Below, in pieces: positions 5,289 to 57,734 of a stretch of DNA of 64,000 nucleotides; the first letter of the stretch is position 1, and each line of letters begins with the position of its first letter. The notes beneath the pieces are model-generated. The model was given only the letters and a program-made list of their open reading frames with translations. It had not been told where the DNA came from and searched no databases. The position numbers were made by a program, and so were the translations under genes. The stretch lies in contig OZ024750.1 of assembly GCA_964016885.1 (NCBI GenBank), positions 5,766,001 to 5,830,000 of the forward strand, written 5' to 3'. Source of the stretch: Eledone cirrhosa (Eukaryota).

Positions 5289-5330
5289 ACATAAATCTTT
5301 CGTTGCACATCTGCAACATCGTCAGTGGTG
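5289..5330 (-). ncRNA. Minimal type-I hammerhead ribozyme candidate (weak stem I)
   Basis: Minus strand reads cca-CTGACGA-t-GTTGCA-gatg-TGCAAC-GAAA-gatt-TA-tg. Core is intact and stem II has 6 bp; stem III is AGATTT (near-palindrome) and stem I has only 2 bp. Confidence 0.55.
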
Positions 5331-5502
5331 TTATATTCATTGTTCCTCCTGTTGTGTTGTATGTCTACGCCATTTTTTTTGTTCAGTCTGTCTATATATT
5401 TATTTATTTATTTATTTATAAAAAACCTCGCAAAACTAATTCATCGCCGCTATATATATATATATATATATATATATATATATATATATATATATATATA
5501 TT

Positions 5503-5615
5503 TAGTAATAATAATAAATTTGAAGACTAAAGTCCAAAGAGGGCTCGCAGATCCCGTTAAGGGTGAAAGCAGCGATTCTTTGCTTAAACTTTAATCTATT
5601 ATTTTAATAAATAAA
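5503..5615. mobile_element. Family F short insert in (TA)n, internally inverted
   Basis: Left part matches 27370-27412 and right part matches 27607-27656. Confidence 0.8.
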
Positions 5616-5820
5616 TATATATATATTTATTTAGGTTTGTTGGTTGACCACTGGATAGAACTGGTCATTCCGTATGGTCAATCTCGATGTAATATGATGG
5701 AGAACACTCAACGTAATGCAACTCACCCGTCTTCGTTTGTGTAGTTGTTGGTGCGAGTACGGAGTTAATTATTATAAAATAACAGGAGGCTGGACTGGTG
5801 TAATTCCTTAAAGGTTTATT

Positions 5821-5878
5821 ATACTATGAACATTTCAATGACCAGGTTCAGTATGAATCCGGTGATATCATCAGGTAT
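5821..5878 (-). ncRNA. Type-I hammerhead ribozyme (left arm)
   Basis: Minus strand reads ATAC-CTGATGA-stem II-GAAA-TGTTCA-TA-GTAT, with one change in the stem III palindrome. Confidence 0.7.
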
Positions 5879-6000
5879 TCAAAATATGACAAAAGAAAAT
5901 ATAACAGATAAAATCCATGGGGCTGAAAATCAGAGACAAGAGGACGACCGACTATTTAGCAGCTTCTACCTCAGTCGGCCGCCCTCGAGTTATATTTTGA

Positions 6001-6058
6001 ATACCTGATGATATCACCGGATTCATACTGAACCCGGTCATTGAAATGATCATAGTAT
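6001..6058 (+). ncRNA. Type-I hammerhead ribozyme (right arm)
   Basis: Stem I ATAC/GTAT; CTGATGA 6005-6011; stem II with ACCGG/CCGGT; GAAA 6043-6046; palindromic stem III ATGATCAT; predicted cleavage after A6054. Confidence 0.8.
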
Positions 6059-6159
6059 AATAAACCTTTCAAGGATTTACACCAGAACATGCCCCCTGTT
6101 ATTTTATATATATATATATATATATATATATATATATATATATATATATATATATATAA

Positions 6160-6322
6160 ATGTTGTATGTGGTGTATATATGTTGTATGTGGTGTATATA
6201 TGTTGTATGTGGTGTATATATATTGTATCTGGTGTATATATATTGTATGTGGTATATATATATTGTATGGGTTGTATATATATTGTATGTAGTGTATATA
6301 TGTTGTTTGTGGTGTATATATG
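6160..6322. repeat. 20-bp minisatellite TGTTGTATGTGGTGTATATA, about 8 copies
   Basis: Seen directly. Confidence 0.9.
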
Positions 6323-6926
6323 GTGCCGTCAAGAATGGTGTATATCTGTATGTCTATATATCTGTATATTTCTAGGTCATGGGCGATAGGGTATGTATGT
6401 ATATATGTATATATGTATGTGTGTTTATGTGTATATATTTATGTATGTTTGTGCGTATGTATGTATGTTCATAGATGCACAAACACATATATGTATATAT
6501 GTATGTGTTTCTGTGTGTATATGTATGTACGTATCTACGTACGTACTTATATATGTATGCAGTGGTGGACTGGCCAGGTTACCAGGTTGCCCAATGGCAA
6601 GTGGGCCCACTGTAGTATTTAGGGGCCAATGCTTTGCTTTCAAAAAATACTTGAACTCTAAGAGAAAGAATGAAATAAAAAAATAAATAAAACAGTTAAG
6701 CAAAGCATTTGGTCAACCAAGGAGGGGGGGGGGATGAGGTGGAACAGAAATGAAACATGGATTGCAGGTTAAAATATAGTCTAGATAAATGTGAAACAAA
6801 ACGAGGAATGATTTAGAAGTCGACCTTAAGTAGGAGCAATAACATTACGAAAGACATGAACGACACCACAACACTTTGTTTTGAAAGTAGGTTTATAAGT
6901 ATGAATTTTCATTAGATATTCATAGT

Positions 6927-6998
6927 ACTCTCTGTGGCCTAACGGTAAGTACTAGAGACGTTGGAGATCCTGGTCTTGGGTTCAATCCTGGTCAAGAG
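6927..6998 (+). other. tRNA-like sequence (Pol III A and B boxes) inside the hAT element
   Basis: A-box-like TGGCCTAACGG and B-box-like GGTTCAATCC at tRNA spacing, with a T-run downstream. Confidence 0.6.
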
Positions 6999-54330: not shown

Positions 54331-54522
54331 GGTGGTGGATTGGCAGTATCGGTAGAGGGTCGGACGCCATGCTTTCCACCATAGAGTTACGTCCCTTTAC
54401 GATCTGAGTTCAAATCCTGCCAAGGTTGACTTTGCCTTTCATCCTTACGGGGTCGATAAAATAAAGTACCAGTAATGTACTGGGATAATTGCTGGCATTG
54501 TGCCTAAAGTAGAAACAATTAT
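54331..54522 (+). mobile_element. Family A SINE with a 19-bp TSD
   Basis: ATTATCTCTTCTCGTCTCT on both sides. Confidence 0.92.
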
Positions 54523-54719
54523 CTCTTCTCGTCTCTCTTCAAACGTATTTCTCAGTCTTATGTTTTGATTCCTTAATGATCTTCTCCTCCTCCTCCTCTT
54601 TCCAATTCCTCCCCTTCTCTTCTACCTTCTCCTCTTCCTTTTCCACCTTTACAGTACAGTATATTGGAATACCGATAAAACAGCAACAACAACAACAACA
54701 ACGATATAAACATATATAT

Positions 54720-55076
54720 CAGGTCCGAACACAAAAGAACCAAACTCCCACTGTCACTACCCCCCCCCCCGCTCTCCCCCTCTCTAACTATTATGATCAA
54801 ATGGGGACCCACGGGCTGGTCGCCTCACGGTCCCGGCGGACAGAATAGAGAAGGCGTTTCCCCAGAGGATCGTGAGGAAGGCTCGCTAGAAGAACCATTC
54901 CAGCTAGCGAGGCTCTATACCTGTGGGTAACAAACTCTTTGCCGATGATGGCGAACAGGGAGGTTGTCGTAGGGCCAAGGACACCAGAAGTCTCCACTGC
55001 TACGGGTTCGACCTCAAACCTACCCGAGAGCCACCGATATTTGGAGAGTTTACTCTTCTCGGCCCAAAGTGCAGCA
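54720..55076. mobile_element. Longest family D copy (GC-rich)
   Basis: Shares blocks with 770-860, 3060-3112, 12679-12787, 22800-23036, 28020-28135 and 59468-59598. Confidence 0.7.
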
Positions 55077-56404
55077 ATACTTTTATTTGATAGTAATGCT
55101 ATCCATATATCCTTTCTTTCTTTCGTTACATCTTTTGCTTTGCTTAAGTGGAAGTTGTTATGACAGAAGGAAATGTTATGGAGAGATAGAAATGCCGTGA
55201 TATTAGTTTAAAGCCTCCAGATATTTAGTTTCATCTTCCTACATTTTGAGTTCAATTGACGTTTCCTTTCTGCACTTCAGGGACAATAAATATAGTAGCC
55301 ATATATATATATATATATATATATATATATATATATATATATTTATATATACTGCTGTCTACTTTATCGATTATATCGTTCCCTATGAAAAATTTGTGCC
55401 ATTGTACCACAAACATATCAAATAAGGAGGCAACACAAGAAATAGTAGATACCACCACCACCACCACCACCACCACTACTACTACTACTACTAAAGAACA
55501 TTTCTGCTATTTCACACGAGATGACAATGGCAATAACAAATGTAACAACATTGGTAAGAAATCCAACGAATAAAATCCAACTTTACTCCATATACTATCT
55601 CTCTCTCGTTCACCCTCCCTCAGTCTCTCTCTCTCTTTCTCCCTTCCTCTCTCTCTTCCTCCCCCTCTTTCCCTCCCTATAAAGAGGTACTAAAACGTTA
55701 TCTCTGAAAGTGCTGGACAATAGAGTTTATAAGAAACTGAATTGCCTCGTTAAAGTGTTCGTTCTATTTAACCTTTGGGCGGTCTCAAAAGATTGTAACA
55801 CGGCCAATATACCTCTTAACTTTCTCCTTTGTTATTGGGTGACTTTCTAAAATGTAAGTCGAAAAGATGAAAAAAATGGCGATTTTTCATCAGATAACAT
55901 ATCTTCATTGATGACATTCATTGATCTTCTGCTAGTGTCAAAATGGCGGCCGAAGAAACTGTATTTCACGTTTCCGTGTTTTCTGTAAATGTTTTCGCTA
56001 CTTTTCTTTCTTGCCTTCCTTTCTGCATGCATACATACAATACACATATATATACACACATATACACATATATACACACGCACATGTATATATTAATATC
56101 CCTGTTTATATATATATATATATATATATATATATATATACCTTTATAGATGCATATATACATCCATATATATACAGTACAGAAATATGTATGTGTGTAT
56201 ATATATATATATATATATATATATATATATATATATATATATATATATATATATATATAAGTTTATGCCCTTGTTCTCTAAATATAGTTTTTAAAGAATT
56301 CCCTTTTCTTTAAACCCATCAACCAATGACCTCCACCCATCCCAATCACCACCCACTCCTACCACGAGAAAATATATAAATACCACCATATTACTTGGAC
56401 AGTC

Positions 56405-56455
56405 GGCTTCTTGATGATTTCTCTCGAATGAAACAGTTCTAGTCCGGTAGAAGCC
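56405..56455 (+). ncRNA. Type-I hammerhead ribozyme, partly decayed
   Basis: 6-bp stem I GGCTTC/GAAGCC; TTGATGA (C3 to U); stem II TTC-tctc-GAA; GAAA; 16-nt imperfect palindrome ACAGTTCTAGTCCGGT; GUA site; AATAAA downstream. Confidence 0.65.
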
Positions 56456-56744
56456 ATTTCTGTATTAAATAAACATATATAAATATGCATATAATATGTA
56501 TGTGTATGAGTGCGACTGCGTGTGTGTATAGATATATGAGCATTCATATATATATATATATATATATATATATATATATATATATATATATATAGATTTT
56601 GAGTATATGTTGGTTGTATACCAACACCTCAGTATGCAGGCTGGAGCACTCGACGAAGTGCGCAGGTTGGTTTGGTTACTCCGGAGTAATGTAAAATAAA
56701 GTAAATTAAATAAGTCAAATGTTTAGAATTTAGCTTCGTTTATT

Positions 56745-56800
56745 ACTGCTATATATATTTCGGTGACAGCCATCTTTGGCTGTGACCTCTTCAGGCAGTC
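56745..56800 (-). ncRNA. Type-I hammerhead ribozyme (left arm)
   Basis: Exact reverse complement of 56919-56974. Confidence 0.85.
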
Positions 56801-56918
56801 ATATATGATTCCAATTCCTCAGTGAAATAACAACCCAACTAGGAACTGGGCATATCAGAGTATTGACAAAATTATACACCTCAACAACATATGTACTTGT
56901 CTATACCACACTAATTCG

Positions 56919-56974
56919 GACTGCCTGAAGAGGTCACAGCCAAAGATGGCTGTCACCGAAATATATATAGCAGT
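56919..56974 (+). ncRNA. Type-I hammerhead ribozyme (right arm)
   Basis: Stem I ACTGC/GCAGT; CTGAAGA 56925-56931; 10-bp stem II with one C.C mismatch; GAAA 56958-56961; palindromic stem III ATATATAT; predicted cleavage after A56969; AATAAA follows. Confidence 0.88.
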
Positions 56975-57734
56975 AATAAACGAAGCTAAATTTTAAACAT
57001 TTGACTTATTTATTTTACTTTATTTTATATATATATATATATATATATATATATATATATATATATATATATATATATATATATATATATATATATATAT
57101 ATATATATATATATATTTATATATATATATATATATATTTATATATATATATAGAGAGAGAGAGAGAGAGAAAAGAGAGAAATTGGGAGTTACTAGTTGT
57201 TTAGACTAGTAAAACGAAGTTCAACTCTATTTTGGGTTAATATTGGGTCAAAAGATTCTTATGACTGTCAGCAGGCTGCCATCACACGGTGTGTGTAGGT
57301 GTGTGTGTGTGTGTGTAGGTGTGTGTGTGTGTATAGGTGTGTGTATGTATGTATGTATGTGTGTGTGTATATACATATATATGTGTGTGTGTGTGTATGT
57401 GTCTGTGCGTGTGTGTGCATATTTGTTGGTTTTCTGTATGTTTAAATGTATTTATTTTTGCGAAAGAATTCTGTCTTTCGCTTTGTACGTAAACCTTTAT
57501 ACGTTTCGTCAAAGTACGAAACCTCACCTATAAATCTACCAGATGTACAAATGTTTATCTAGTTTGCATATTTTATCACATGTGGCTATAATTATTGTAG
57601 ATGTCTTTGTTTGAACAAGGCGGGAGACGCGTGTTTATATATATATACACACACATGTATATATAGAGAGAGAGGGAGAGAGTACATGTATGTATACTGA
57701 CATGCACATATGCACCGACAAATGTACACGCATT

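Follow-up and report, generated by a model that had tools for sequence, protein, structure and literature searches.

Penelope-like elements (PLEs) are known as a class to carry hammerhead ribozymes in their pseudo-long terminal repeats (pseudo-LTRs or pLTRs; PMC4209133, by Cervera and de la Pena, 2014), and in that report a single minimal hammerhead showed no cleavage and dimers showed weak cleavage. The transcription start site is described as lying within the pLTR, such that the 3′ untranslated region (UTR) of an upstream copy drives the next copy (PMC2377424, PMC8557442). Work on insertion in vitro reports that reverse transcription starts at two internal sites, which define the tail, that the main insertion substrate is unprocessed, uncut RNA, and that the hammerhead, conserved in all canonical PLE clades, is yet dispensable, with no RNA cleavage ends seen (PMC11167929). 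Octopus Naiad elements and one octopus Hydra family with (TA)n targets are given in the supplement of Craig et al. (2021, PMC8557442), and a preprint on retrozymes covers 35 species (four invertebrates), with the word 'mollusc' absent from its main text (bioRxiv 10.64898/2026.07.22.740005). Here we analyze a window of 64,000 nucleotides from the octopod Eledone cirrhosa (G000:C10:5766001-5830000 of a 3.0-Gb assembly), in which nine hammerhead motifs lie in seven insertions. Each insert is the pLTR of a PLE and a member of a dispersed family. From the sequences of the inserts and their copies we think it likely that they represent the pLTR ends of at least seven PLE families in (TA)n, the short ones being reverse-transcribed from small uncleaved RNAs that would start at a promoter in the terminal pLTR.

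All nine folds had been proposed in an earlier note made from the letters of the window, which is apparently non-coding as judged by long open reading frames (ORFs), and all were found in place. The families are lettered C (at 5.3 kb), A (5.8–6.0 kb), D (25.9 kb), E (45.2 kb), F (49.6 kb), G (56.4 kb) and B (56.7–57.0 kb), and their features are as follows.

5082..5417, minus strand: family C pLTR end of a young Nematis-type PLE, without a tail, beginning ~90 nt ahead of the hammerhead and reaching into the first codons of the following ORF
5290..5327, minus strand: C hammerhead with CUGACGA, an extra U, a 6-bp stem II, stem III AGAUUU (a G-U palindrome), a 2-bp stem I and H17 at 5292
5417..5450, plus strand: inverted C-tail fragment joined to the 5′ end, followed by (TA)n
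5626..5990, minus strand: family A main arm, with a fixed 5′ end at a GC-rich hairpin, the hammerhead, the 3′ end and a ~140-nt tail
5821..5878, minus strand: A(−) hammerhead, its stem III palindrome broken in the window copy (AUGUUCAU), H17 at 5825
5989..6104, plus strand: family A inverted arm, 5′-truncated and tailless, ending in (TA)27
6001..6058, plus strand: A(+) hammerhead, intact, with AUAC/GUAU, CUGAUGA and AUGAUCAU, H17 at 6054
25875..26039, plus strand: family D, Neptune-like PLE; truncated pLTR whose U3-A8 hammerhead (core 25896, H17 25933) has weak stems
45198..45400, plus strand: family E pLTR and tail of a 4.9-kb Neptune-type PLE, with a U3-A8 hammerhead (core 45230, H17 45259) and (TA)n on both sides
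49468..49694, minus strand: family F pLTR and tail of a 4.2-kb Neptune-type PLE, with an intact hammerhead at 49616-49654 (H17 49621)
56262..56471, plus strand: family G pLTR, in which a TATA box (56375-56382) precedes stem I by 30 nt and CCAAT boxes are also present
56405..56455, plus strand: G hammerhead, degenerate in the window copy
56596..56800, minus strand: family B inverted arm and tail, with a hammerhead at 56745-56799 (H17 56750)
56803..57025, plus strand: family B main arm, from a fixed 5′ end (TCATAT) to (TA)n, with a hammerhead at 56920-56974 (H17 56969); pLTR of a Hydra-type PLE

Several lines of evidence bear on whether low-complexity DNA could have produced these motifs by chance. 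A strict descriptor (CUGANGA, GAAA, a palindromic stem III with at most one mismatch, UH, and a stem I of at least 4 bp) matches the window five times, compared to a mean of 0.02 (maximum 1) in 100 dinucleotide shuffles within 200-nt blocks, and a second descriptor gives five matches against 0.03 in shuffles. These descriptors were drawn up after the motifs were known and are to that extent tuned on them; the independent test comes from 23 contigs, on which 60 stretches of 10 kb were sampled at round coordinates. Within these 600 kb there are 31 matches, representing 30 distinct motifs, against 0–2 in 10 shuffles (0.3), and another descriptor set gives 24 matches against ~0.1. Taken as monomers, the motifs of C, D and E show no folding advantage over shuffles, which is what chance would give; the motifs are nonetheless kept across dozens of copies, covary, and occupy a fixed place after PLE ORFs. 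Chance, to which we assign next to no weight, is refuted by the 600-kb sample together with this conservation among copies.

Extrapolation of the sample gives ~150,000 motifs genome-wide (Poisson range 101,000–214,000), or about one per 20 kb. The density of one per 7–10 kb put forward previously does not extend to the genome, which has about half that of the window; the window figure of one per 9 kb is a local one, the window being TA-rich, with (TA)n making up 9.2% of it compared to 3.4% of the genome sample. The claim of TA targeting holds up well, as 26 of the 31 sample matches lie within 250 nt of (TA)6+, a proximity that random positions show in 27% of cases, or 43% within the same loci. 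Standard RNA annotation does indeed pass over these ribozymes: no hammerhead model of Rfam matched the window or seven loci at the gathering score, none matched 56260-57030 at E≤10, and the E-value list for the whole window, as shown, consists of microsatellite-like microRNA models throughout. The core swaps G3-C8 and A3-U8 were sought in the 600 kb, and none was found. A relaxed match at 32041-32086 on the minus strand was dropped, as it is without stem II.

The clean motifs of the window are A(+), both motifs of B, and F, and for these the description as a minimal type-I hammerhead stands. Elsewhere it needs qualification: the palindrome of A(−) is broken, D combines its U3-A8 core with one stem II mismatch, and in the window copy of G position C3 has become U (U3 with G8) and stem III is damaged. 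Stem I is 4–6 bp long in A, B, F and G, 3–4 bp in E, and 2 bp in C and D. Eight of the nine window motifs have a hammerhead core, six the canonical one (both of A, both of B, C and F) and two the U3-A8 variant (D and E). Stem III is a palindrome in the forms AUGAUCAU, AUAUAUAU, AGUACU, ACCGGU and AGAUUU (with G-U), and in G is replaced by a hairpin.

Conservation within the families was counted with regular expressions that demand UGA and stem II, such that the counts lean to intact motifs. The CUGANGA core is present in 38/41 motifs of A, 41/41 of B, 26/26 of C, 92/97 of F and 33/34 of G, and the UUGANAA core in 15/15 of D and 88/89 of E, with the U3-A8 pair itself in 87/89 motifs of E and 15/15 of D. 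As a family G has a CUGAUGA core and a true 4-bp stem III hairpin, with C3-G8 in 33 of 34 motifs, and a G copy in locus L107 folds as a complete monomer hammerhead. The expected covariation among copies is seen in stem I of G, where, of 34 motifs, 16 have C-G and 15 have A-U at pair 4. The proposal that the inserts are unrelated in sequence is only partly right, with relationships evident between A and B (z 6.0) and between D and E (z 4.7). We also note a further Nematis-type family (H; L271 6596-6640 and L272 1688-1732) with a non-palindromic stem III. In family H and in older C subfamilies (L151, L167, L179) stem III reads AGGACU or AGAACU; dimerization would place G-A or A-A mismatches in tandem.

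Genome searches with the seven inserts returned at least 40 scored places for each, and exact patterns, which count both arms of an insertion separately, match at 10,949 (E, 27-mer), 6082 (F, 37-mer) and 3213 (C, 34-mer) places. The copies show the PLE insertion signature, in which an inverted 5′-truncated arm differs in length between copies, one of the two arms is tailed, and the ends are (TA)n, in agreement with the link to PLE pseudo-LTRs drawn in the earlier note. Inverted element sequence lies immediately 5′ in 46 of 77 short F arms; of 46 tailless F arms, 40 have (TA)5+ no more than ~30 nt from the pattern, and of 52 tailed ones, 46 have it no more than 120 nt away. Miniature inverted-repeat transposable elements (MITEs), which are DNA transposons, were considered and rejected: the length of the inverted arm varies between copies, the tail may be on either arm, and there are no fixed terminal inverted repeats. 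The MITE-like appearance of A and B came from queries spanning the inversion junction, and pattern searches gave variable junctions as well as long copies.

Five families connect to coding sequence for a reverse transcriptase (RT) and/or a GIY-YIG endonuclease (EN), with motifs of Nematis, Neptune or Hydra type; clades were assigned by sequence motif and not by tree. Families C, E and F are the ends of 4.1–4.9 kb PLEs encoding both RT and GIY-YIG, with tandem periods of 4136 (C), 4202 (F) and 4915 (E), and an ORF that begins at or just past the pLTR end. The C segment of the window matches at 100% copies lying after an ORF of at least 1201 amino acids that encodes RT motifs and GIY-YIG together with a short CX4CX2C linker; the ATG of this ORF is inside the pLTR end and the tail encodes the next residues. 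Its best protein match is from Octopus vulgaris (68% identity), and among 56 close homologues one is annotated as RVT_1 and one as GIY-YIG. Family C is of Nematis type, with seven residues between CX4CX2C and the next Cys, as in the Nematis rows of Fig. S2 of Craig et al. (PMC8557442), and has DKS where DKG is expected. In L142 the C ORF contains a long Asn-rich linker at residues ~230–400, reminiscent of the N-rich inserts described in Adineta Penelope ORFs (PMC3846280). The F ORF matches RVT_1 (E 2.9e-6, just below the Pfam cut-off) and GIY-YIG (E 3.3e-6, above it), and the E ORF, 45–48% identical to that of F, matches GIY-YIG above the cut-off (E 4.7e-7) and RVT_1 just below. The E and F translations share a long CX4CX2C linker, CCHH in the EN, and DKG, which are Neptune features in rows of the same figure (PMC8557442).

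The evidence in D and B takes the form of endonuclease remnants. Family D, which we tentatively regard as Neptune-type, has GIY-YIG C-terminal remnants 640–840 nt upstream in two insertions (L067/L269 and L077). A Hydra-type endonuclease lies 1.27 kb upstream of B in L261, and its C-terminal part in L263 and L262; the L261 translation combines a CxCX5C linker with CxxC and CxH close to the C-terminus and has no CCHH, which fits the Hydra definition (PMC8557442), and the RT part was not found. Assignment of B to Nematis, suggested by an H-type ORF start on a B end (L242/L260), was rejected because three other B insertions carry the Hydra-type endonuclease. That arrangement (L242; L260 337-2070, minus strand), in which the H-type ORF start is fused directly to the B pLTR, is likely a template-switch chimera between clades. 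Naiad, with an N-terminal EN and no canonical hammerhead, was likewise set aside, as here the EN is C-terminal and hammerheads are present. The 3′ UTR of B (L240, L263) contains, upstream of the B end, tandem 196-bp units with CCAAT boxes that are enhancer-like. Many diverged Hydra-type endonuclease remnants (28–44% identity) occur in unselected flanks, including L149, L155, L166, L057, L307, L308 and L090, and the apparent diversity of Hydra elements here far exceeds the one octopus family given in PMC8557442.

The short copies begin at preferred positions, which we number relative to the core C3/U3. Arms were selected by sequence pattern, the F, E and C copies being the first matches listed on one contig. 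For F we examined 30 loci and 56 further stretches, giving 98 arms, of which 55 begin at −49..−37 (peak −44), 21 are long, and none begins at −280..−50; the remaining arms begin at −36..+27 (10), +28..+35 (8) and +36..+72 (4). Long F copies contain two CCAAT boxes and a TATA box at −74/−75. The E sample (30 loci and 40 further stretches, 88 arms) has 46 ends at −45..−34 (peak −43/−42), 17 long arms, none at −33..+11 and 14 at +12..+67, and its TATA box, TATAAAA, is at −72. For G, 24 motifs met incidentally in other loci were used; the top-40 BLAST lists of G are biased toward long copies, and the incidental copies gave the opposite picture, with 18 of 24 beginning at or within stem I and the other six keeping the TATA box at −36. 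This box, TATAAATA, is at −36 in two G subfamilies whose sequence between box and stem differs. Thus the 5′-end peak lies at TATA+30 in three unrelated sequences (F, E and G), with the hammerhead retained. Arms of A begin at −109..−125 in 20 of 30 cases and at −138, where CATAAG is found, in two, with eight long; B arms begin at −104..−112 in 8 of 15 cases, on TCATAT, with CCAAT upstream. Within the window, F begins exactly on its family peak, the main arms of A and B on theirs, and E 10 nt inside, with the G copy retaining its TATA box.

The short copies might instead be ordinary 5′-truncated PLE insertions, with their ends piled up at an RT stop or at a hot spot for fold-back or microhomology. 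Heavy 5′ truncation is described for PLE insertions (PMC8557442), many F and E junctions are fold-back palindromes, A begins at a GC-rich hairpin, and the spread of D and C ends resembles plain truncation. We nevertheless regard this explanation as unlikely. First, the TATA+30 peak is found in F, E and G although its distance to the hammerhead varies (44, 42 and 6 nt). Secondly, no F end falls within 230 nt upstream of the peak. Thirdly, copies directly bordered by (TA)n, where there is no fold-back, begin on the same base, and the A arms end after, not before, the hairpin.

Reverse transcription of small promoter-derived RNAs would proceed as follows. A long copy that keeps its 3′ promoter would give an RNA of 150–350 nt, comprising the start site (TATA+30), the hammerhead and the tail. 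The RT-endonuclease of an autonomous relative would bind this short RNA and nick (TA)n, and priming at one or other of two internal sites would yield a copy with or without a tail, to which an inverted second cDNA would often be added. The sequence 5′ of the scissile bond is retained in these copies, showing that their template was uncut there. An RNA with one hammerhead would mostly escape cleavage because a palindromic stem III needs two, and a full-length RNA, with a hammerhead in each of its 5′ and 3′ pLTRs, could form an active dimer. Short copies, being without an upstream promoter, would be dead on arrival. The two motifs of an inverted pair are on opposite strands and cannot form a dimer in cis; the read-through RNA of such an insert is instead predicted to be one long hairpin of ~120 bp (−194.5 kcal/mol, z −22).

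A number of observations weigh against this scheme. Both the start sites and the cleavage are deduced from DNA. The E arms include 11 of 88 that end at −223..−69, some of which are alignment breaks; B is without a TATA box, A has the CATAAG variant alone together with a broader spread, and the search patterns for both sit at the 5′ end, so that ends further downstream are invisible. D is broadly spread, with 9 of 19 ends at −94..−130. C has little or no peak, with 23 of 30 copies long and one inverted pair at −62/−65. This pair lies just before what we take to be a YY1-like motif. A Pfam search gave no match on the C ORF, where RT and GIY-YIG are recognized by motifs and homologues, and neither A nor G yielded a partner ORF. 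Moreover, the real stem III hairpin of G should let it cleave without dimerization, but the copies of G are uncleaved, and the need for a dimer cannot therefore be the whole reason for escape.

Independent non-autonomous ribozyme retroelements, resembling short interspersed elements (SINEs) or retrozymes, with master copies of their own and amplified via cleavage and circular RNA, constitute a further alternative, to which we give slightly less credence than to plain truncation. The window A main arm derives from a 2077-bp tandem unit with no ORF longer than 126 amino acids and with no match from F, C or Hydra queries, and we regard A as a true non-autonomous element that is probably Hydra-derived, being placed with Hydra through its relation to B. 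In G the shared sequence stops ~420 nt upstream. The earlier description of the inserts as non-autonomous thus holds for A and perhaps G, and fails for C, E and F, with RT and GIY-YIG, and for D and B, with their endonuclease remnants. Fixed 5′ ends are SINE-like, retrozyme-type tandem hammerhead repeats are present elsewhere in the genome (L260), and retrozymes are reported as PLE derivatives (bioRxiv 10.64898/2026.07.22.740005). On the other hand, five of the seven families run on into PLE coding sequence, the window inserts are single or inverted and never head-to-tail, their ends are off the cleavage site that circle-derived monomers would need, and the short copies have no promoter. Promoter-derived mini-RNAs of PLEs remain our preferred source.

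Two observations concern such repeats in their own right. L260 (~4500-5800, minus strand) contains retrozyme-like head-to-tail repeats of ~330 bp with a type-I hammerhead in each (ACUAGU stem III), and L259 (3294-3341 and 2001-2048, minus strand) a second short, retrozyme-like hammerhead repeat. The body of A (L254, L258) contains a duplicated GC-rich module of ~160 nt and the 5′-terminal hairpin, with no Rfam match.

A minority of F copies may carry a trace of cleavage. The predicted F cut lies before +29, and in six independent insertions (L353, L295, L279, L338, L276 and L278) the end that is furthest upstream falls at +28..+35, three of them (L353, L295, L279) stopping at +29/+30. Six insertions in 8 nt, compared to five in the other 97 nt, corresponds to a rough Poisson p of ~5e-6, with the background chosen by eye. 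Starts at the predicted cleavage sites are also seen in single copies of C (L255; site at +34) and B (L190; site at +45). We lean modestly toward the F cluster reflecting cleavage in vivo. RT stalling at the 3′ strand of stem I in a folded, uncut ribozyme, in which case the ends would be no record of cleavage, is a close and only somewhat less probable competitor: two of the six ends lie immediately outside stem I, at +35, no such cluster is seen in E (1 of 88 arms near +30) or G (none of 35 arms near +39), and in the data reported for Anolis the cleavage site was not the end of any RNA read (PMC11167929). The three ends at +29/+30, however, take in nearly the whole 3′ strand of stem I, and the C and B copies and the Poisson estimate likewise speak against a stall.

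More tentatively, and at rather less than even confidence, we speculate that hammerheads number some 100,000–200,000 in this genome and arose mostly via mini-RNA retrotransposition in three clades, that the minority of scissile-bond starts record cleavage in vivo, and that the ribozyme gates one- versus two-ribozyme transcripts. If so, tens of thousands of crisp 5′ ends would make the role of the ribozyme countable from DNA, a promoter start indicating an uncut template and a scissile-bond start a cut one. Promoter-anchored copies would account for the predominance of single PLE hammerheads in animal genomes, and would offer a by-product route to SINE-like and retrozyme-like elements. Heavy adenosine-to-inosine editing is known in the animal group of the host, and the near-perfect ~120-bp RNA hairpins of inverted inserts are likely substrates for editing or silencing.

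Other repeats of the window include a degenerate 3′ fragment of the E lineage at 30894-30973 (minus strand, 80% identity, without a hammerhead), absent from the earlier note. A frequent SINE-like dispersed repeat is present at 12784-13143, 35292-35774, 36623-37162 and about ten more places (~90–170 matched bases), and also in the flanks of other loci. An interstitial telomere-like minisatellite at 37301-40521 consists of 179 copies of an 18-bp unit in which the telomere hexamer TTAGGG is embedded; a short run of pure (GGTTAG)n lies near the end of the array. Further tandem arrays lie at 1-280, 13389-13988 and 63499-63997 with periods of 22, 110 and 56 bp.

What appears to go beyond the routine here is the scale, the presence of three clades together, the putative promoter-anchored short copies and the possible cleavage trace. 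In the literature examined we found no description of promoter-anchored short PLE copies or of octopus hammerheads on such a scale, and two papers on cephalopod repeats give Penelope elements, with the word 'ribozyme' absent from the text available (PMC13282606, PMC8967140). The inserts resemble the metazoan PLE hammerheads reported in PMC4209133 in their core with UH, the short palindrome of stem III, their location within the pLTR and several families per genome, as well as in being mostly single truncated copies, with opposite-strand pairs 100–700 bp apart, a U3-A8 variant and one case of a 2-bp stem I. They differ in their octopod host, absent from the text examined there, and in number (~150,000 by extrapolation, compared to 2,000–9,000 there with different descriptors), in having U-U rather than G-C at 10.1-11.1 in three families and a full stem III in G, and in their fixed 5′ ends at TATA+30, which that text does not describe. 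They are similar to the EN+ PLE clades Neptune, Nematis and Hydra, as presented in PMC8557442, in their C-terminal GIY-YIG, partial tandems, (TA)n targets, inverted 5′-truncated copy and tail at one end, and unlike them in having tails of up to 60–140 nt in several families, compared to 30–40 bp. Hydra-1_Obim, the one octopus Hydra hammerhead given there, differs from all seven. Non-LTR retrozymes, as portrayed in the preprint (bioRxiv 10.64898/2026.07.22.740005), share with the inserts a type-I hammerhead, the lack of an ORF, PLE ancestry and monomer derivatives; they form head-to-tail arrays with a hammerhead in each unit, whereas the window inserts are single or inverted ends running from a putative start site to the tail.

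The closest parallels for the promoter are the solo pLTRs of Adineta vaga (PMC3846280) and the composite Penelope/HeT-A promoter (PMC2377424), which share with the present families a TATA box and initiator-like sequence in the pLTR, palindromes at inverted junctions, an upstream 3′ UTR driving the downstream copy, and Asn-rich ORF inserts. The Penelope element of D. virilis is described as having a TATA-less internal promoter (PMC2377424), unlike the TATA boxes found here. The Adineta solo pLTRs are few and are ascribed to recombination or deletion (PMC3846280), whereas here such copies are dominant and begin at a putative start site.

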